In this document: in pieces, positions 9,815 to 17,691 of the stretch
Layout of the letters: every line of letters starts with the position of its first letter
Position numbering within the stretch: the first letter of the stretch is position 1
Assembly (NCBI RefSeq): GCF_003018115.1
Contig: NZ_CP027457.1
Strand: one strand, 5' to 3'
DNA from: Escherichia coli
GTDB taxonomy: Bacteria; Pseudomonadota; Gammaproteobacteria; Enterobacterales; Enterobacteriaceae
Length of the DNA stretch: 64,000 nucleotides
Position numbers and translations under genes: made by a program
The notes under the pieces: model-generated
Seen by the model: the letters and a program-made list of their open reading frames with translations, nothing else
Told to the model about the DNA's origin: nothing
The model's database searches: none

Positions 9815-11677
9815 TCACGACAGCTCAGGAGGGTTATTCCTGATGTCATCTTCACAAATAATGGTTAACGCATCATATATCATTCTGCGTCTGTTCCTGT
9901 TTTCGGCCTTATCGCCATACAACATCATCACATTTTTAATTTCATCGACCGGTGATTTCACATAGTGAACTAATACACCAAGCTTCTCAACACATTGCAG
10001 TAAAGTATATTTCTTACTGCCTGTGAAAAGCCCTATCATAGTTTCTTTACGTTCGCGACTGGATAATACTTTGTTTTCCATAATGACTTCAGCCAGCGTC
10101 TTACCATCATAAACATACTCTTTATCTATCAGAATATTTATCTTATCCAGCACCTTCTCTACGTCATCAAGCAAACCTGTAATATATGGGGGCGCAATAT
10201 ATGGTTTCGTACTGATCTTTTCAAGCATACAATTATACATCTTAATAACACGCATCAGGGTAAAATTGTTCGCATCATACTGTATTTCACCCTCCTTATA
10301 TACAGGTTCAATAAGTGGTATTGTTTCAATAAATGCATCCTGATAGGCTTTTACATGGTCAAGCCAATAAAACAACGAGCCATACTTTATATTTTTTCTA
10401 TTTACTTTAACCTCCAGTGCTGTCCGAAGCAACGATAATGCCCCCCTGACATATCCTGAAGGTAATTCACCAAACAATCCTTTTCTTTCCATGTCATCAT
10501 AATGCTGCAGCACATCATTAATTTTATTTTTCCTTATCAGACAAATGTACACCGCAAGTGTTTCGTAGCAGCTGGTCACATGAACAGCCTCATTCTGCAA
10601 CTGCCCAAAATAGCTTATAATCTTTTTCAGATATGCGTCATCACAACCATTCTTATCATTAATATTAAATACAAGATCTTTCAGACGGGAAATATATTCC
10701 TGAGATTTATCATCAAGTGAAACACTATAACGAGACAATGTTCCTTCTGCACTGTTTTCAAACTTATAAAACATTTCCAGTAATTTTTTTGCATAAGGCG
10801 TTGTATCAAAGCTGGTAAAGTCATAAAGATATTGCGCAGCGTAACCATACAAACCATGAATCCAGAGTCCTTCTCTCACCAACACTCTGAGATAATATGC
10901 AAGGTTTTTAAGTATCTTCGTCTTTCGTTGTATATCAAGTAAGACACTTAATGAATAAAATGCATTATAGAATTTATCAATATTCCTGAGCACTTTCTCC
11001 AGTTCATCCTTATCCAGCTTCTTCTCCCGGTAATCCTTTTTATATTCATTTTTGATAGCCATGATATATTGTTGCATCAGGCTCTTGCTTTTCCCGTTAT
11101 CCTTCCGTATAGTTCCTGTATATTTCCCCAGAGCATACAGCTTTCCATTTTCATGAAAATCTTCCTTGTTGAATCCCAGTTCAGCCAGATATTCCCGAAG
11201 ATAACGTTTAACAGCAGCTTCATCGCTTTCTGTATCAGCGTGATCAAGACAAGGGCAATACGATTTCTGTAAAAAATTATAAATATGATAATAAAAAGCA
11301 GAGTCATTCTCTGGTCTGTATGTATTATACATATCTACAACAAGAAAAATAACCCCAAAAGTGCGCAGACAATAGCTGCGAAGGAATTCAGGTTTTAGTG
11401 TGGAATGCACTGGATAAGAATTCATCATGTAATAAAAATGTTCATATCGGGCATATATGATCCGCCGTTGCTCCTGACTGAACACCCCTTCAGCATCAAT
11501 AATACGACTGATCTCATTATAACGTTGATCCCAGAATTTTTGATGCATTTCAAAATTGGTACTCTTCCGCTTGTGTGCCGGATTCTCGCCTTCCTTAAAC
11601 AACCCCAAAACAGTACAAATATCATACAACAGATTTGTAAATGTGCGCATATGCTGTGCTCTCCGGTTGGTTTGCAT
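9815..11677 (-). CDS. Hypothetical 620-aa protein, AT-rich orphan gene (alternative start at 11650 with better RBS gives 611 aa)
   Basis: Long uninterrupted ORF in otherwise AT-rich DNA; no Walker A, HUH, or other motif recognised; helix-rich K/E/Y-rich composition. Confidence 0.7.
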   Translation of the reverse strand: MQTNRRAQHMRTFTNLLYDICTVLGLFKEGENPAHKRKSTNFEMHQKFWDQRYNEISRIIDAEGVFSQEQRRIIYARYEHFYYMMNSYPVHSTLKPEFLRSYCLRTFGVIFLVVDMYNTYRPENDSAFYYHIYNFLQKSYCPCLDHADTESDEAAVKRYLREYLAELGFNKEDFHENGKLYALGKYTGTIRKDNGKSKSLMQQYIMAIKNEYKKDYREKKLDKDELEKVLRNIDKFYNAFYSLSVLLDIQRKTKILKNLAYYLRVLVREGLWIHGLYGYAAQYLYDFTSFDTTPYAKKLLEMFYKFENSAEGTLSRYSVSLDDKSQEYISRLKDLVFNINDKNGCDDAYLKKIISYFGQLQNEAVHVTSCYETLAVYICLIRKNKINDVLQHYDDMERKGLFGELPSGYVRGALSLLRTALEVKVNRKNIKYGSLFYWLDHVKAYQDAFIETIPLIEPVYKEGEIQYDANNFTLMRVIKMYNCMLEKISTKPYIAPPYITGLLDDVEKVLDKINILIDKEYVYDGKTLAEVIMENKVLSSRERKETMIGLFTGSKKYTLLQCVEKLGVLVHYVKSPVDEIKNVMMLYGDKAENRNRRRMIYDALTIICEDDIRNNPPELS

Positions 11678-11732
11678 TTTATCGCAGAGGACATTCTGAG
11701 CTTAACGTATCAAACTGACACAACGACATGCA

Positions 11733-12038
11733 ATGCATATGGAGAACAATATGTCAAATCAAACCGGACAGCTTTACACGCCTTCACGCATCCTGCGTAT
11801 GGCTGAACTTACCCGACTGCTGGGTATATCAAGATCTACTATTTACGTGAAAATAAATCCGGCCTCGAAATACCACGACCCTACCTTTCCCAAACCAATA
11901 AGGCTTGGTAGTGCATCCGTAGGCTGGCGGGCATCTGCCATCGATGAGTGGCTGATGTTACATACGGCACCAGCCTGGTCTGAACCTGAAAACAAACGAA
12001 AGGAACTTAATGATGACGACAAAACTATCACTCCCTGA
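11733..12038 (+). CDS. alpA: AlpA-family phage-type transcriptional regulator (start may be 11751)
   Basis: MAELTRLLGISRSTIY...FPKPIRLGSASVGWRASAIDEWL matches AlpA HTH pattern (RLxEVxxxTGLSRSTIYRLxxxGxFPKPxKLGxRAVGWxxSEIxxWI). Confidence 0.7.
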   Translation: MHMENNMSNQTGQLYTPSRILRMAELTRLLGISRSTIYVKINPASKYHDPTFPKPIRLGSASVGWRASAIDEWLMLHTAPAWSEPENKRKELNDDDKTITP

Positions 12039-13539
12039 ACTTGACACAACTAAACTGCCTGACAGGTGCCAGGCATTACTTGATGAAATGCATGAAGAAA
12101 CAGGAATACGCCGTGAAATACTTCTGTCTGTTATGCTGACGGTCATGGCTGCCTCGGTCCAGGATACGCATGAAGTTGAACTTTCCGGAGGGCAACGTAC
12201 CAGCCTTCAGATATTTATGTGTCTTTCATCAGCATCAGGCAGTGGAAAAACCTCTGCCTGCGCAAAATTAATCGCTCCTGTTCATGAAACAGAAGAAGAA
12301 CTACATCAGGCATATATCGACGATAAAAAAAACTATGACCGAATGATGGAAATGTGGACAACAGATAAAAAAATCCTGGAGCGGAGATATAAAAAGGAAA
12401 TTGAAAGATCCCCGGAAAATGCTGCTGCTGCACGAGCAGCACTTGAAAAGTGTATAGCAAATAAACCCGAACCTCCCGTACAACAGGTTCTCATCGTGAA
12501 TGACGCGACACCAGAAGGGATAGCTTTGAAACTCAGCCAGTCACCCTCTCTTCTGTTGCTGTCTGATGAAGGAGGTACTATTCTGGATAAGCGTTTCGAA
12601 CGCAAATCGGCACTGTACAACACATTATGGAGTGGGCAACCAGTCAACGTTGAACGGGCATCCAGACCCGGGTTCCGGCTGAATGATGTCCGTCTCACTA
12701 TACTTATACTGACTCAACCGGTAATATTTAATAAGTTTTTTACTCTCACTGGCGATCAGATCCGGGGCAATGGCTTTCTGGCCCGGTTGCTATTTTGCGA
12801 ACCCGGAGCAATTAAAATAATGACGACAGAACCGCATACTGCCACTCCTGTTGTGACGCAACAATGTGCAAGCTGTTTTCGTAAGAAAAGTTTTGGCAGT
12901 CAGATCAGAGACTCTCTGAGAGCATCCAGAGAAAGACGTGCAAAAAGTAAAGAGCGCATCTGCATGACATTATCAAATGCAGCATCCCGCGCACTGGAGC
13001 GCTTTCACAAAGAAAATATGGATACTGTCAGACAGAATCCTCATATGGGTACTTTTGAAGACATTATTGTCAGAAAAAGAGAGCAGGTTGTCAGGATAGC
13101 AGCACTTCTGGAACTGGAGAAAGATCCAGACTCGACAGTAATAACGCTGGAAAGTACTAATAGCGCCATTTATCTCATTGAATTTTATTTCAAGCATCTT
13201 ATATATAAACTTGAATCCCTTCGGGAAATATCCCCGGCTGAGAAACTTGATAAATGGCTTCAGAAAAGAATTATCACAACAGCAGGTTACATATTCCAGA
13301 AAAGTTATATTTTACAATATGCCCCATATGCTCTCAGGAAAAAATGTGTTCTGGATGAAGCACTTGACATACTGGCGGAACAAAGGAAAATAAGGATTGA
13401 TGATAACCTGGTTGTTTATATAGGAAACACGATTACACCATCCGAACTGGCAAAAAAACTAAATATTCCTGCATTCGATGCCGGAGTTTTCATTTGTGAT
13501 CATCAAAACATACTGAAGTATCACCGAAACAGACTATAG
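12010..13539 (+). CDS. P-loop NTPase-like protein in the primase/helicase-like slot of P4/CP4-57-type elements (YfjI-like)
   Basis: 509-aa ORF overlapping alpA 3' end; near-Walker-A SASGSGKTS and hhhhDEGG Walker-B-like motif. Confidence 0.5.
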   Translation: MMTTKLSLPELDTTKLPDRCQALLDEMHEETGIRREILLSVMLTVMAASVQDTHEVELSGGQRTSLQIFMCLSSASGSGKTSACAKLIAPVHETEEELHQAYIDDKKNYDRMMEMWTTDKKILERRYKKEIERSPENAAAARAALEKCIANKPEPPVQQVLIVNDATPEGIALKLSQSPSLLLLSDEGGTILDKRFERKSALYNTLWSGQPVNVERASRPGFRLNDVRLTILILTQPVIFNKFFTLTGDQIRGNGFLARLLFCEPGAIKIMTTEPHTATPVVTQQCASCFRKKSFGSQIRDSLRASRERRAKSKERICMTLSNAASRALERFHKENMDTVRQNPHMGTFEDIIVRKREQVVRIAALLELEKDPDSTVITLESTNSAIYLIEFYFKHLIYKLESLREISPAEKLDKWLQKRIITTAGYIFQKSYILQYAPYALRKKCVLDEALDILAEQRKIRIDDNLVVYIGNTITPSELAKKLNIPAFDAGVFICDHQNILKYHRNRL

Positions 13540-13708
13540 ATACTATCGGACAAAAAATAAATTATCACAAGTGTATTATTCGTTATAATAATGAATAATC
13601 GTTATCTGAGTGCAATGCCAGGTTTTCATTACGAACTGGCATTGCATTTATTTTTCAAAAAAGAAAGCAGTAACCATTTGGCTACTCTGAGTATGCCAGT
13701 CCATGAAA

Positions 13709-14926
13709 CTAAGCGAATTCCTTAGTGTTTTTAGCAAGTTGAGACATCACATAATCCGCCCATGCCTGCATCATCGGTACACGCTGCTCCAGTAGATCAG
13801 TACGATGATATGCCGCCTCAACCTTATTTTTCAGCGTATGAGCGAGCGCCCTTTCCGCCAGATCCCGCGAATACCCCTGTTCACTACACCAGTCCCTGAA
13901 TGTTGAGCGAAAACCATGTGCCGTGGCAACTCGCCCCGGTATATCACTGATGGCTTTCTTTTTACGCAGAAAACTCGTCAACACCATATCTGAAAGGATC
14001 TGCTGCTTTCTGGGAGAAGGAAACACTAGTTCATCATGCAAACCACGTATATTTTCCAGAATGTGAATGGCCTGCCGGGATAAAGGAACACGATGCTGTA
14101 TCCTGGCTTTCATTCTTTCTGCGGGTATAGTCCATATCCGCTTATGAAAATCAATTTCAGCCCAGCGCATTCCCCTGGCTTCGCCCGAGCGGGTTGCTGT
14201 AAGTATCACCATTAATAACAGTGCCCGGGTAACATTATAAGGTTCATCTGTATACACACTGGTCGCCACAAAAAGCGGTAACTGCCTCCAGGGCATTGCG
14301 GGTTGGTGTTCATCACGTCCTCTTGTCTGCTGAGGAAGCAAATGGTCAACCACATCAACAGGGTTTGCCACACAAAAACCGTGCGCCCATCCCCACTGCA
14401 TAACAACATGAATGCGCTGTTTAACCCGGCTTGCCGTTTCTGACAAGGTTAACCAGACTGGACGCAGTGTTTCTGCCACGTCCGCAGCCGTAATCGAATC
14501 CAGCGTTTTTGCTCCCAGTTGAGGAAACGCGTAATTTTCAAGCGTCGATAACCACTGCCTGACATGCTTTGGATTTTCCCATCCCGGTGACAATTCAGCA
14601 TGTACACGCCTGGCTGCATCGGCAAATGTTGGGATAACAACTTTTTCAGCTTCAGCCTTTTTAATCTCCAGTGGGTCATCACCTGCAGCAAGTTGCTCTC
14701 GCATTATCCGGGCAGCACGTGCAGCTTCAGCAATACTGACCTCAGGATAAGTTCCCAATCCAGCATTACGCCTTTTTTGTGTCACCGGACTTACATAACG
14801 AAAAACCCATTTACCCCGCCCTTTTACTGAAGAAGGATGAAGAGTCAGTCCTGTAATTCCCCCATGGGGCAATGGTTTGTCATCAGGTTTGATATGCCTT
14901 GCTTTAGTATCCGTCAATACTGCCAT
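13709..14926 (-). CDS. int: P4-type tyrosine integrase
   Basis: 405-aa ORF, N-terminus MAVLTDTKARHIKP... typical of P4-family integrases; C-terminal R...HGFRSTFRDW...Y catalytic motifs. Confidence 0.9.
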   Translation of the reverse strand: MAVLTDTKARHIKPDDKPLPHGGITGLTLHPSSVKGRGKWVFRYVSPVTQKRRNAGLGTYPEVSIAEAARAARIMREQLAAGDDPLEIKKAEAEKVVIPTFADAARRVHAELSPGWENPKHVRQWLSTLENYAFPQLGAKTLDSITAADVAETLRPVWLTLSETASRVKQRIHVVMQWGWAHGFCVANPVDVVDHLLPQQTRGRDEHQPAMPWRQLPLFVATSVYTDEPYNVTRALLLMVILTATRSGEARGMRWAEIDFHKRIWTIPAERMKARIQHRVPLSRQAIHILENIRGLHDELVFPSPRKQQILSDMVLTSFLRKKKAISDIPGRVATAHGFRSTFRDWCSEQGYSRDLAERALAHTLKNKVEAAYHRTDLLEQRVPMMQAWADYVMSQLAKNTKEFA

Positions 14927-15085
14927 ACGCTAATTCCTGTTACTCTGGTATGCCATCCAGTATGCCATTAGTCTCTCGCTTCACTAAGAATACATTAGAT
15001 AATATCGGACAGCAAAAAGTGTAATACATTGTTTATAATGAAATTATATAACACCCCCGGATTAAGTCAGATTTATTTCAGGCGG

Positions 15086-15100
15086 CCCCCCTCACCGCCA
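15086..15100 (+). other. tRNA-Ser 3'-end-like att core remnant (CCCCCCTCACCGCCA)
   Basis: 15-nt string ending in CCA matches the recalled 3' acceptor end of tRNA-Ser (serW/serX type); upstream sequence is AT-rich and not a tRNA body; ~160 bp from integrase start. Confidence 0.55.
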
Positions 15101-15112
15101 TATTTAAAGAAG

Positions 15113-15142
15113 AGCTCGTACGAAAGTACGGGCTTTTTTTTC
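15113..15142 (+). terminator. Rho-independent terminator hairpin (GAAA tetraloop plus T8), possibly bidirectional
   Basis: gctcgtac-gaaa-gtacgggc followed by tttttttt; preceded by A-rich tract on the other strand; lies just after the tRNA-like fragment and downstream of the 15192..15878 minus-strand gene. Confidence 0.55.
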
Positions 15143-15191
15143 GTATATTGCACACACCGGGGGGATGAGAATCCCCGACCGGGATACTTAG

Positions 15192-15878
15192 TTAATGCAA
15201 CGGTTCACTCTTTGTCGCCGCGACTAATGGGCGAATTTTGTCACGAGTCTCCCAGACCGGAGGGATTTCCTCCAATTTAGTGACAGAAGCTCGTACAAAA
15301 GGCACCCGTGCAAGAGTCATAATCGTATCCAACCAACGGTCACGAATAATGCGATCCGCCCTTTCATGACTCGGGTCATCCAGCTCAATAACACAGACTA
15401 TTTTATTGTTCTTCTTTGAAACCAGAACATAATCCATTGCCATGCCATTATAAATTGCAAAGAAACGCTTTCTTTCTTCTTCGCTAAACTCAGGTTGTTC
15501 TGGAAAGTTGATCAAGCGCCCCAGAGAGACCTGGCAATGGATATGACAATAATGTCCAAACCATTTTTCCAGATTATCGAAATACATTTTTTCACAACGC
15601 GTGATTAACCACTCTTTTCTTTCCAATAAAATACCTTCGGCAACCATTCCCTGAAATAACTCATCTCGCTCTTGCCAACGAGAGTCACGATAGGTTTTCT
15701 GCGGTATATAGCTCCTTGTCGACGCCTTAGCGGCAGGGGAAGTTGCAGATGAAGGGACTGGTTGCGATTTAGCGATGATTACCGATGAGGCAACTTTTCG
15801 GAGTGTCAATTTTCTGGCAACAGCAAAACCGGCGATAAATGCAATTGTCAAACAAGTTACAAAAGACATAAAGCTCAT
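15192..15878 (-). CDS. Hypothetical membrane-anchored protein, DUF2726-like (restriction-endonuclease-like fold) C-terminal domain
   Basis: 228-aa ORF with N-terminal TM helix; C-terminal region ...DYVLVSKKNNKIVCVIELDDPSH... resembles DUF2726 (recalled, unverified). Confidence 0.45.
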   Translation of the reverse strand: MSFMSFVTCLTIAFIAGFAVARKLTLRKVASSVIIAKSQPVPSSATSPAAKASTRSYIPQKTYRDSRWQERDELFQGMVAEGILLERKEWLITRCEKMYFDNLEKWFGHYCHIHCQVSLGRLINFPEQPEFSEEERKRFFAIYNGMAMDYVLVSKKNNKIVCVIELDDPSHERADRIIRDRWLDTIMTLARVPFVRASVTKLEEIPPVWETRDKIRPLVAATKSEPLH

Positions 15879-16410
15879 AATTAATGTTCACCTATCCATG
15901 TTGATTATATTTCATTACCAATGTTACTCGCTGAAGCGTGTTACATGCCAACAATGCAACGATCAATATATAGTTAGTATCATGTTTTGATTATTACAAC
16001 CATCCCTATTTAGCCATTGCGGCTTGCCTTCCACAAAAAAACAACAACACACAATATTAGCCAAAGAATTAATTAAGATTAACCTTACATTTATAATATT
16101 ATCCCTAAAGAATAAATCAGAGGAATATATTCGGTGTTAAACAGTCAGTCAAAGTATGGCCCATTGTTGATTAAACCTCATAAGCAAAATTGGCACCAGA
16201 TCTCCTGTACAGGTTGAATGGCCGAAAAAAGATAGGCAGATGCTCATTTTTTTGGCTTCTGGAAGAAAAACTCTCCGCGCTGGCAGTATTACACTGGTCT
16301 GATGCTATGACGAAAAATGCCTGGTAAGAGTATCTAAACCAGACTCCAGTTCAGCTTATCAACACCCTCAAAGTCGCCCCCCTGAACGCTAACCTGAAGT
16401 GAAAATCTGT

Positions 16411-16441
16411 TGAAATAAAACAAAGCCCGGTTCGCCCGGGC
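16411..16441 (-). terminator. phoH rho-independent terminator
   Basis: gcccgg-ttcg-cccggg hairpin followed on minus strand by TTTGTTTTATTT. Confidence 0.6.
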
Positions 16442-16459
16442 TCTGCACCGATAATACAC

Positions 16460-17524
16460 TTAACTGTATGCATGTAGCGTACGTTGGCAAAGTGCCGAAC
16501 GTACGCAATCCTCTTTACCGAATCGGACGATCCCGACCATTTCATCTTCTTCGAAACGTTCCAGTGCGTCACTTAATCCGGAGTGCACGCCGCGAGGTAA
16601 ATCGCATTGCGTGATATCACCGTTGACGATAACCGTCACGTTCTCCCCGAGGCGGGTTAAAAACATTTTCATTTGCGCGGCAGTCACATTCTGCGCCTCG
16701 TCAAGAATGACGACTGCATTTTCAAAGGTACGTCCACGCATATAGGCGAACGGCGCAATTTCCACCTTCCCTATTTCCGGTCGCAGGCAGTACTGCATAA
16801 AGGAAGCCCCTAAGCGCCGGACCAGCACGTCGTATACCGGGCGAAAATAGGGAGCAAACTTTTCTGCGATATCTCCAGGTAAGAAGCCAAGATCTTCATC
16901 GGCTTGCAGAACTGGACGGGTGACGATAATCCTGTCGACATCCTTATGTATCAGGGCCTCTGCCGCTTTTGCTGCGCTGATCCAGGTTTTTCCGCACCCG
17001 GCTTCGCCCGTGGCGAATATCAGCTGCTTACTCTCAATAGCCTTCAGATAGTGCAATTGCGCTTCATTTCGCGCGAGGATGGGCGAGGTATCGCGACTGT
17101 CGCGGGCCATACCAATGGCTTCTACGCCGCTCATCTGCACAAGCGAGGTGACCGATTCTTCTTCACGCTGCTTATGGCTGCGCGAATCCCGTCTCAGCAC
17201 ACGTTTTGCCTCGCGACGAGCTTTGATCACTGCTTTTTGTCTTCCCATGGAGAGCACCTTGAGTTGTTTGTATTCATCACACGCGCCGTTGGCAGCGCGA
17301 TTATGCGCACGAACATCAGAGGGTTGGCTTCCTTGTAAGCCATAGTTTGCTTTTGGATAAAATGCCGAAAAACGGCTACGCGCACCGTTTACGGCGTCGG
17401 TAACACATGAAAAGAAAGGATGAGGTTGAAAATGCAAAGTGACGAGATGACTACCGGAGGAGAAAACTCCGCGAGTGGTGGCGCGTTGATTATCTAAAAC
17501 ATGTCCAGTACAGGACGTTACCAT
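16460..17524 (-). CDS. phoH: PhoH, phosphate-starvation-inducible ATPase
   Basis: 354-aa ORF with Walker A GEAGCGKT; matches recalled K-12 PhoH. Confidence 0.9.
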   Translation of the reverse strand: MVTSCTGHVLDNQRATTRGVFSSGSHLVTLHFQPHPFFSCVTDAVNGARSRFSAFYPKANYGLQGSQPSDVRAHNRAANGACDEYKQLKVLSMGRQKAVIKARREAKRVLRRDSRSHKQREEESVTSLVQMSGVEAIGMARDSRDTSPILARNEAQLHYLKAIESKQLIFATGEAGCGKTWISAAKAAEALIHKDVDRIIVTRPVLQADEDLGFLPGDIAEKFAPYFRPVYDVLVRRLGASFMQYCLRPEIGKVEIAPFAYMRGRTFENAVVILDEAQNVTAAQMKMFLTRLGENVTVIVNGDITQCDLPRGVHSGLSDALERFEEDEMVGIVRFGKEDCVRSALCQRTLHAYS

Positions 17525-17673: not shown

Positions 17674-17691
17674 ATGACAGAGTGATGACAG
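17674..17691 (-). promoter_or_regulatory. Pho box (PhoB site) upstream of phoH
   Basis: Minus strand reads CTGTCAT-cact-CTGTCAT, matching CTGTCAT-N4-CTGTCAT consensus. Confidence 0.6.

Follow-up and report, generated by a model that had tools for sequence, protein, structure and literature searches.

What stands between phoH and the tRNA-Ser gene serX in those Escherichia coli strains that lack the pga operon at this site, where did it come from, and what might it do? The question is raised by a 64,000-nt stretch of E. coli DNA (contig NZ_CP027457.1 of assembly GCF_003018115.1; hereafter the window), in which phoH is followed on the same strand by a single gene for a 228-aa protein with an N-terminal transmembrane (TM) helix and a DUF2726 domain, and this in turn by the attachment-site (att) remnant of an island integrated at serX. 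We find that the protein very probably consists of a Vsr-like (EDxHD-type PD-(D/E)xK) domain held on the cytoplasmic side by an inner-membrane anchor and a leash of ~40 residues, and that its gene is an old resident of the phoH-serX interval and not cargo of the island.

The domain was recognized by its profile match, its modelled fold and a set of conserved residues. Pfam places DUF2726 (PF10881, a family of the PD-(D/E)xK clan with no assigned function) on residues 90–205, at E=2.5e-18 and over profile positions 3–116 of 126; the score of 66.5 bits exceeds the gathering score, which is 24.7. This is the only Pfam match of the protein at E<=1 and makes it a full member of the family, in keeping with the RefSeq label 'DUF2726 domain-containing protein', under which strain F9792 has a 100% identical copy (WP_001612790.1). 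NCBIfam returned no match, PHROG only one, of unassigned function, and a sequence-profile search of the PDB no credible entry, only a spurious capsid match at E=1.7. The AlphaFold2 model, computed from a 17-sequence alignment (A1) of homologues from three genomic contexts, shows an N-terminal helix (residues 3–31), a segment with predicted local distance difference test (pLDDT) scores below 50 (residues 30–62) and an alpha/beta domain with pLDDT of ~90 or above, which has a restriction-endonuclease-like core fold and matches Vsr-type endonucleases. DUF2726 has been clustered with Vsr and DUF559 before (Steczkiewicz 2012, PMC3424549). Throughout A1, residues E96, E165, D168, H171, R176, R179 and D180 are invariant, D149 is conserved in at least 90% of the sequences, and position 167 is D or N, as at the 'x' of EDxHD, a motif that was defined with I-Bth0305I (PMC3239194) and that these residues parallel as well. 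In a comparison by eye of motifs and secondary structure, their contexts (..TRCE96KMY..L, MD149YVLV, VCVIE165LD167DPSH171 and IRD180RWLD) parallel those of Vsr (TAIE25KRL, PD51FVV, CVIF62TH64GCFWH69 and ERD97RRD), and the composite pattern E...D...x...H...D of Vsr (E25, D51, H64, H69, D97) has its counterpart in E96, D149, D/N167, H171 and D180. Such conservation at the positions of the Vsr catalytic motif, read on the model, suggests that the domain is a nuclease. The protein differs from Vsr in having neither the zinc site nor the intercalating tryptophans and in its membrane tether, from I-Bth0305I in having no NUMOD or helix-turn-helix (HTH) DNA-binding modules, and from Vsr, DUF559 and I-Bth0305I alike in an extra helix (residues 133–144) between the E and D motifs.

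The anchor is formed by residues 3–21, FMSFVTCLTIAFIAGFAVA, which have a mean Kyte-Doolittle hydropathy of 2.18 over the 19-mer and are followed by RKLTLRK. There is no charged residue before the helix, the predicted periplasmic N-terminus being two residues long, and by the positive-inside rule the domain is therefore predicted to lie in the cytoplasm, on a flexible leash whose length and sequence both vary in A1. In a census restricted to the best DUF2726 cluster representatives of at least 140 aa, an N-terminal anchor was present in 132 of 169; the helix began within the first 10 residues in 112 of 149 anchored relatives, and lysine and arginine were commoner after than before it in 146 of these 149 (mean 4.1 versus 0.27). 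The anchor is thus typical of the closest DUF2726 representatives and not peculiar to the gene in the window. The original prediction, which had proposed a TM helix at the N-terminus, a C-terminal domain resembling DUF2726 and a restriction-endonuclease-like fold, was accurate in all of this. The family at large, which comprises over 5,000 clusters at 50% identity, explores many tether architectures: three distant members (P0037, P0038 and P0062) carry two tandem nuclease domains after the anchor and then long low-complexity tails rich in K, S and Q, and two others (P0113 and P0124) have a large extracytoplasmic-looking N-terminal domain ahead of the TM helix.

The history of the gene was approached by comparing its locus with that of K-12 MG1655, in which the annotated order is phoH, pgaDCBA, dgcT, the insertion sequence (IS) IS3, ymdE, ycdU, serX and ghrA. 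Homology between window and K-12 (blastn) ends at 16417, 43 nt beyond the phoH stop and with the phoH terminator stem included, and resumes only at 15183–15086; from these breakpoints, the 1.23 kb at 15184–16416 occupies the site of 10.9 kb in K-12, namely pgaDCBA-dgcT-IS3-ymdE-ycdU. No homologue of pga, dgcT or ycdU was found in the window, nor did ARAGORN find an intact tRNA there, and positions 15086–15100 are identical to the last 15 nt of serX. We can thus affirm the layout first sketched for this locus, in which pga was taken to follow phoH in K-12 and a single 228-aa open reading frame (ORF), with an att remnant after it, was seen to do so here; the ORF is exactly as then delimited.

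Orthologues beyond E. coli show the same arrangement. Escherichia albertii is colinear with window positions 21292–15086 at 89.6% identity, through efe, phoH, the gene, serX repeats and ghrA; in a cryptic Escherichia clade a 94%-identical gene is in the same position; and the Salmonella enterica orthologue, 71% identical, comes directly 3' of phoH and on its strand, within the series putA, putP, phoH, gene, (IS), ghrA, ycdXYZ, csg. Each of E. coli, E. albertii, the cryptic clade and Salmonella retains an intact full-length ORF; 151-aa 'truncated' Salmonella proteins were rejected as internal-start gene calls within an intact 219-aa ORF. Shigella and members of the Citrobacter freundii complex share the same 90% clusters, and the exact Salmonella sequence occurs in several thousand indexed blocks of the assembly collection. 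For the gene as a whole, the ratio of nonsynonymous to synonymous substitution rates (dN/dS) is 0.14 in the comparison with E. albertii and 0.04 in that with Salmonella, and for the domain it is 0.056 and 0.050, respectively, with values of 0.44 for TM helix plus linker and ~0.02 for phoH; dS against E. albertii is 0.42 for the gene and 0.33 for phoH, and against Salmonella it is saturated for both alike. As judged from these sequence comparisons, the gene is under purifying selection and vertically inherited in Escherichia and Salmonella, and because it is so constrained and is syntenic with phoH in Salmonella, we regard it as an ancestral chromosomal gene of the phoH-serX locus.

Within E. 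coli, the gene is present in 1,043–1,049 of 5,426 complete genomes (~19%), essentially in one chromosomal copy each, and among the carriers are O111:H8, PCN033, O166:H15 and other large-genome human and bovine strains. There are two allele groups, at no less than 99% and at ~96% identity, and a K1-derived strain has a 94%-identical allele in the same arrangement as F9792. Across the complete genomes pgaC occurs in 4,382, the DUF2726 gene in 1,049 and at least one of the two in 5,395, which by inclusion-exclusion gives ~36 genomes with both and ~31 with neither. The phoH-serX interval thus exists in two nearly exclusive states in E. coli, holding either the pga-dgcT-ycdU block or the DUF2726 gene. 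The smaller state is probably ancestral, and the simplest reading is that insertion of the pga-dgcT-ycdU block replaced the ancestral gene in most E. coli (~80%), K-12 included. The possibility, entertained with the original prediction, that the gene is core and syntenic in most E. coli therefore has a divided outcome: ancestry and synteny reach as far as Salmonella, but only ~19% of E. coli have the gene. A case of recent loss without gain of pga is seen in E. coli ECZP248 (locus L047), where IS1 has removed the 5' four-fifths of the gene and left 139 bp beside serX. A 1.45-kb contig of a metagenome-assembled genome named 'Collinsella sp.' (L011) bears the E. coli gene at 94% identity, likely by contamination or mis-binning.

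Could the gene nevertheless belong to the island that ends beside it? In F9792 the order is ghrA, intact serX, gene, phoH, efeBOU, with no island; the K1-derived strain and E. albertii likewise have the gene but no island, as does ECZP248 with its IS1-truncated remnant, and the integrase of this island adjoins the gene in only 68 of ~1043 carrier genomes. Conversely, the island (window positions 1–15090) is 100% identical in E. coli 2014C-4135, where it abuts ycdU on a pga-type chromosome. The break in homology between island and chromosome falls at 15085/15086, which places the gene outside the island, as it is outside the 15-nt att core. The link between gene and island is incidental, and the reason for which the gene had first been suspected, its place at an island junction, does not stand, given that gene and island each occur without the other. 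No complete genome in the collection matched the island and the DUF2726 flank together. In 2014C-4135 the island (L044) goes on for over 45 kb, in which there are the contact-dependent inhibition genes cdiB/cdiA, a type I restriction enzyme, orphan toxin/immunity pairs and copies of IS66, and its integrase lies at the end with the 15-nt remnant, not at the intact-tRNA end. In the window, a 620-aa island ORF without Pfam or PADLOC match (9815–11677, minus strand; 'hypothetical protein' in 2014C-4135) is located between a DUF3987/HTH module and an inovirus-type Gp2-like gene. The phoH-serX interval is an insertion hotspot in Salmonella too: Salmonella pathogenicity island 19 (SPI-19) is inserted at serX with the same 15-nt scar (PMC2907695), and the STM1127–1131 N-acetylmannosamine (ManNAc) island lies in the same region of Typhimurium (PMC11745405). 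Genes of a type VI secretion system (T6SS) that are adjacent to the gene in Salmonella were considered as a fourth T6SS association and rejected, their adjacency being incidental because they are those of SPI-19, inserted at serX; a lead to STM1127 was likewise dropped, as it encodes a MurR-type regulator in the unrelated ManNAc island.

To survey the surroundings of more distant homologues, one genome per species was scanned with profile guidance, exact proteins were looked up and flanking genes were compared by local tblastn. In a first context the gene stands inside T6SS clusters, in the order TssM, TssA, [gene], TssF, TssG, TssJ, VgrG on one strand, in Rahnella woolbedingensis, Citrobacter sp., Ca. 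Pantoea deserta, a Rahnella-like metagenomic contig and Enterobacter, where a VRR-Nuc TseV-like effector, TsiV and TssE come next in the cluster. These homologues are ~54% identical to the window protein in the domain, and in one locus (L040) the gaps flanking the gene are 17 and 28 nt. Between Rahnella and Citrobacter the DUF2726 domain is 76% identical, with 59% for TssA, 78% for TssM, 86% for TssF, 82% for TssG and 72% for TssJ. The copy of Ca. Pantoea deserta (L020 6007–6693) is split by a frameshift, as a pseudogene or by assembly error, with flanking T6SS genes that look intact; a contig filed under 'Chryseobacterium sp. 18061' (L018) gave the same tblastn coordinates and nearly the same identities as the T6SS locus of Citrobacter sp. 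18056 (L017), likely through contamination or mis-binning. In a second context, the gene stands in MPF_G-type transfer modules of integrative and conjugative elements (ICEs), in the order (TraC, DUF1525) TraU, orf, orf, TraG_N, a small reverse ORF, variable toxin-antitoxin genes, [gene], ~1 kb, Integrase_1; this slot was found in six lineages (E. coli, Pectobacterium cacticida, P. brasiliense, Dickeya fangzhongdai and two metagenomic lineages), and the E. coli and Pectobacterium homologues, at ~49% identity, have diverged faster than TraG_N (70%). A stand-alone copy in Erwinia lies directly upstream of genes for VgrG, DUF2169, a PAAR-phospholipase and an ankyrin protein. When the domain sequences are placed on a tree by neighbour joining, the T6SS, ICE and phoH copies fall into separate clades, that of the ICEs including Erwinia and Xenorhabdus. 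The copy in the window has no adjacent T6SS genes and is chromosomal, outside mobile elements, whereas the ICE homologues do occupy the position of a conjugative entry-exclusion gene. In other proteins, DUF2726 is fused to AbiJ N-terminal domains (PMC3710099).

The architecture of the protein and the T6SS and ICE homologues, not the island, make a role in defence or exclusion plausible, and these homologues, like the AbiJ fusions, fit a part in conflict or exclusion. Our best explanation, possible though we hold it with more doubt than confidence, is that of a cytoplasm-facing, leashed nuclease cutting DNA that enters at the membrane. The domain would be an active Mg2+-dependent nuclease; the tether would limit its reach to a shell of a few nm beneath the inner membrane; and within that shell it would cleave nucleic acid on its way in through the envelope, for example a conjugative T-strand or injected phage DNA. 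The nucleoid would be spared by its distance from the tethered enzyme, and an immunity partner would therefore be unnecessary; no conserved small ORF or immunity-like partner was found in the phoH-to-gene spacer or adjoining it. In T6SS operons and ICE transfer modules, the same module would act as a barrier or exclusion factor during contact-dependent conflict. What the analysis shows is the ORF with its domain, fold, conserved motif and predicted topology, its synteny and purifying selection, and the recurrent genomic contexts; the nuclease activity, the substrate, the spatial self-sparing and the biological role are inferred. Taken together, the identity of the protein and this tethered-nuclease explanation make a tentative reading, which we rate somewhat below an even prospect.

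Self-sparing by location has been demonstrated for SNIPE, a membrane-bound anti-phage nuclease of E. coli with an N-out single-pass topology, whose GIY-YIG domain cleaves lambda DNA during injection; a form without the TM helix (delta-TM) is toxic and attacks the chromosome, so that membrane confinement is what spares the cell (bioRxiv 10.1101/2025.11.03.685801, Saxton et al.). Like SNIPE, the protein studied here has a single N-terminal TM helix with predicted N-out/C-in topology, a putative nuclease domain in the cytoplasm and no immunity partner; unlike it, it has neither DUF4041, the DNA- and tape-measure-binding domain of SNIPE, nor a GIY-YIG (T5orf172-type) domain, and SNIPE is about twice as long. 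It is not a SNIPE member, resembling SNIPE in principle while being unrelated to it in sequence and nuclease fold. Entry exclusion offers a second comparison: TraS (of F) and Eex (of SXT/R391) are small inner-membrane proteins encoded beside traG, polytopic and nuclease-free, that act via recognition of TraG. The ICE homologues likewise lie downstream of TraG_N, with no sequence relationship to TraS or Eex detected, and the window copy stands outside conjugative elements. Membrane-tethered nucleases are also known from competence, where EndA of Streptococcus pneumoniae and NucA of Bacillus subtilis face outward, have the beta-beta-alpha-metal fold and serve DNA uptake; natural competence of this kind is not known from E. 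coli or Salmonella. The protein would share with EndA and NucA the tether to the cytoplasmic membrane and the encounter with DNA crossing the envelope, and would differ from them in fold, in facing and, on our proposal, in serving exclusion rather than uptake.

Several observations weigh against this explanation. Slow, vertical, single-copy evolution across Escherichia and Salmonella is atypical of defence genes, and ~80% of E. coli are without the gene. No family of PADLOC-DB 2.0.0 matched at E<=1, and the protein has neither a sensor nor an accessory domain for DNA binding, such as SNIPE has in DUF4041. No functional study of DUF2726 was found in the open-access literature, in which PF10881 itself was not found either. 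An hhalign comparison of the family profile with the E. coli Vsr sequence gave no significant alignment, and the catalytic mapping consequently rests on fold, motif spacing and local context. Because the tree separates three context clades, each context may go back to one ancient capture and not to repeated recruitment. Searches of plasmid and phage collections by tblastn yielded no close homologues: among plasmids only mislabelled chromosome pieces and one distant Vibrio plasmid, and among phages only distant matches in 11–13 kb Vibrio elements.

Other explanations have to be considered against that of a tethered nuclease acting on incoming DNA. One, which we consider improbable, is that the protein is an accessory part of envelope-spanning secretion machines (T6SS or conjugative type IV secretion system, T4SS), serving assembly, regulation or nucleic-acid handling, with the phoH copy as an orphan without its machine. 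The constant and tightly spaced place that the gene has between tssA and tssF, within the operon, in four genera, a divergence of the domain between Rahnella and Citrobacter like that of core T6SS genes, and the fixed place downstream of TraG_N in six ICE lineages would all be expected of such a part. Yet the E. coli and Salmonella copies are strongly selected without an adjacent T6SS or T4SS of their own (SPI-19 of Salmonella having been inserted later), the Pantoea T6SS copy is frameshifted in a seemingly intact cluster, T6SS and T4SS have no common subunit for it to serve, and no such component is described in the T6SS literature found.

Equally unlikely in our estimation is a housekeeping, membrane-proximal nucleic-acid enzyme (for RNA or for DNA repair), perhaps working with the PhoH ATPase, as in PIN-PhoH2 or YbeZ-YbeY, or under phosphate starvation. 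The expression signals argue for independence of the two genes: they are separated by a strong phoH terminator, the stem of which is retained in K-12, and by a 581-bp spacer with a GC content of 0.387 (0.434 in the gene and 0.494 in the window), and the only Pho box found nearby is that of phoH, none being found for the DUF2726 gene. E. coli and Salmonella differ in this spacer nearly throughout, sharing almost nothing in it except ~30 nt with the ribosome-binding region and a TATAAT that is also conserved in E. albertii and the cryptic clade and is a candidate -10 box; Rfam gave no credible match in the gene or its 5' region. Moreover, the T6SS and ICE homologues have no phoH neighbour, and most E. 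coli retain phoH without the gene.

That the ORF is a catalytically dead or functionless relic seems very improbable. Its low GC content, an AT-rich upstream region that could be silenced, its dispensability in most E. coli and occasional truncations (76-aa cluster members and the IS1 deletion) are set against a domain dN/dS of 0.05 over saturated dS, a full-length ORF kept from E. coli to Salmonella, and candidate catalytic residues that are all invariant or nearly so. Least probable of all is the version first put forward, a defence or exclusion cargo tied to the serX island or its junction, which, even with serX an integration hotspot and the gene lying at 92 nt from the att remnant and at ~270 nt from the gene for the integrase, is effectively refuted as to membership by carriers without the island, the rarity of this integrase beside the gene, the identical island beside ycdU and the homology break that leaves the gene outside.

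Table 1. Features of the phoH-serX interval and its surroundings, in window coordinates.
Feature	Position	Strand	Basis and remarks
Coding sequence of the 228-aa TM helix and DUF2726 protein	15192..15878	-	ORF from ATG to stop; Pfam; RefSeq label
N-terminal TM helix, signal-anchor, predicted N-out/C-in	15816..15872	-	codons 3-21; hydrophobicity, AlphaFold2 helix
Flexible linker (leash) rich in S, P, A, T and K	15684..15815	-	codons 22-65; low pLDDT, variable in A1
Vsr-like (EDxHD-type) PD-(D/E)xK nuclease domain, predicted	15234..15683	-	codons 66-215; candidate catalytic E96, D149, E165, D167, H171, D180
TATAAT, candidate -10 box	15904..15909	-	26-31 nt upstream of ATG; suggested by spacer alignment
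TTGACT-17-TATATT, sigma-70-like, alternative promoter candidate (10 of 12)	16124..16152	-	consensus scan, 6 sites versus 4.0 expected; weak
phoH intrinsic terminator	16420..16446	-	11-bp stem, 7 GC pairs, T-run; separates phoH from the gene
phoH, next gene	16460..17248	-	ORF list; neighbouring context
Pho box upstream of phoH	17674..17691	-	Pho-box search; 2 mismatches
Allele-specific block, absent from K-12	15184..16416		blastn breakpoints 16417 and 15183, with K-12 annotation
serX trailer with terminator hairpin 15117-15130	15101..15183	+	blastn against K-12; hairpin prediction
att core remnant, last 15 nt of serX; right-hand island junction	15086..15100	+	alignment with intact F9792 serX
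P4-type tyrosine integrase at the end of the serX island (context)	13709..14926	-	Pfam Arm-DNA-bind_3, Phage_int_M, Phage_integrase

Some further observations concern the neighbourhood of the gene (Table 1). The 98-nt unit made up of the 15-nt serX 3' end and its trailer (15086–15183) is single in the window, but its copy number differs among strains: K-12 has ~3.5 tandem copies with a ~181-nt period 3' of serX (locus L003 14962–15580), E. albertii has 2–3, and two further hits (H2 and H3) have an extra ~180 bp; RefSeq calls copies of it 'RtT sRNA'. On the other side, phoH is 354 aa long as a mechanical ORF call (16460–17524, minus strand), matching the K-12 annotation, and 262 aa long in the PGAP annotation. 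Antisense to its 3' end, Rfam reports a match to Ysr251, a Yersinia antisense small RNA, at 16465–16600 (plus strand; 121 bits against a gathering score of 100), which runs off the end of the stretch searched. Beyond phoH the window continues with efeB and efeO, and between efeU and putP lies a 447-aa ORF (22343–23686, plus strand) without Pfam or PADLOC match, a strain-variable insert in a core region that is annotated as 'hypothetical protein' at the corresponding site in F9792 and the K1-derived strain.

As RefSeq already annotates the gene, what was found is in itself a further member of a known but uncharacterized family. In the searchable open-access literature we found no description of the allelic relation to the pga block or of the ancestral status of the gene, nor of the generality of the N-out/C-in anchor in this branch of DUF2726 or of its T6SS and ICE slots. 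A broader proposal, which is doubtful and which we put forward as rather unlikely, is that anchored DUF2726 proteins form an unrecognized class of single-gene, sensor-less, membrane-confined Vsr-like nucleases that would destroy DNA crossing the inner membrane, captured separately and kept for long in three settings: T6SS operons; ICE transfer modules, as DNA-level exclusion; and the phoH-serX locus of the ancestor of Escherichia and Salmonella. The E. coli copy would then be a standing presence/absence polymorphism against pga. If true, this would be a second, structurally independent case, after SNIPE, of discrimination between self and non-self DNA by location and not by sequence, in a much smaller and simpler protein that about one in five E. 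coli have, as do Salmonella and the gene sets of T6SSs and ICEs; it would give the DUF2726 family a function, and would add a DNA-level layer to the biology of T6SSs and ICEs. Whatever the function, a phoH-serX locus that holds either the poly-N-acetylglucosamine (PNAG) biofilm genes with dgcT or the DUF2726 gene is relevant to pangenome studies and affects the interpretation of biofilm genotypes, for example in O111:H8 and other Shiga toxin-producing E. coli (STEC) strains that lack pga.

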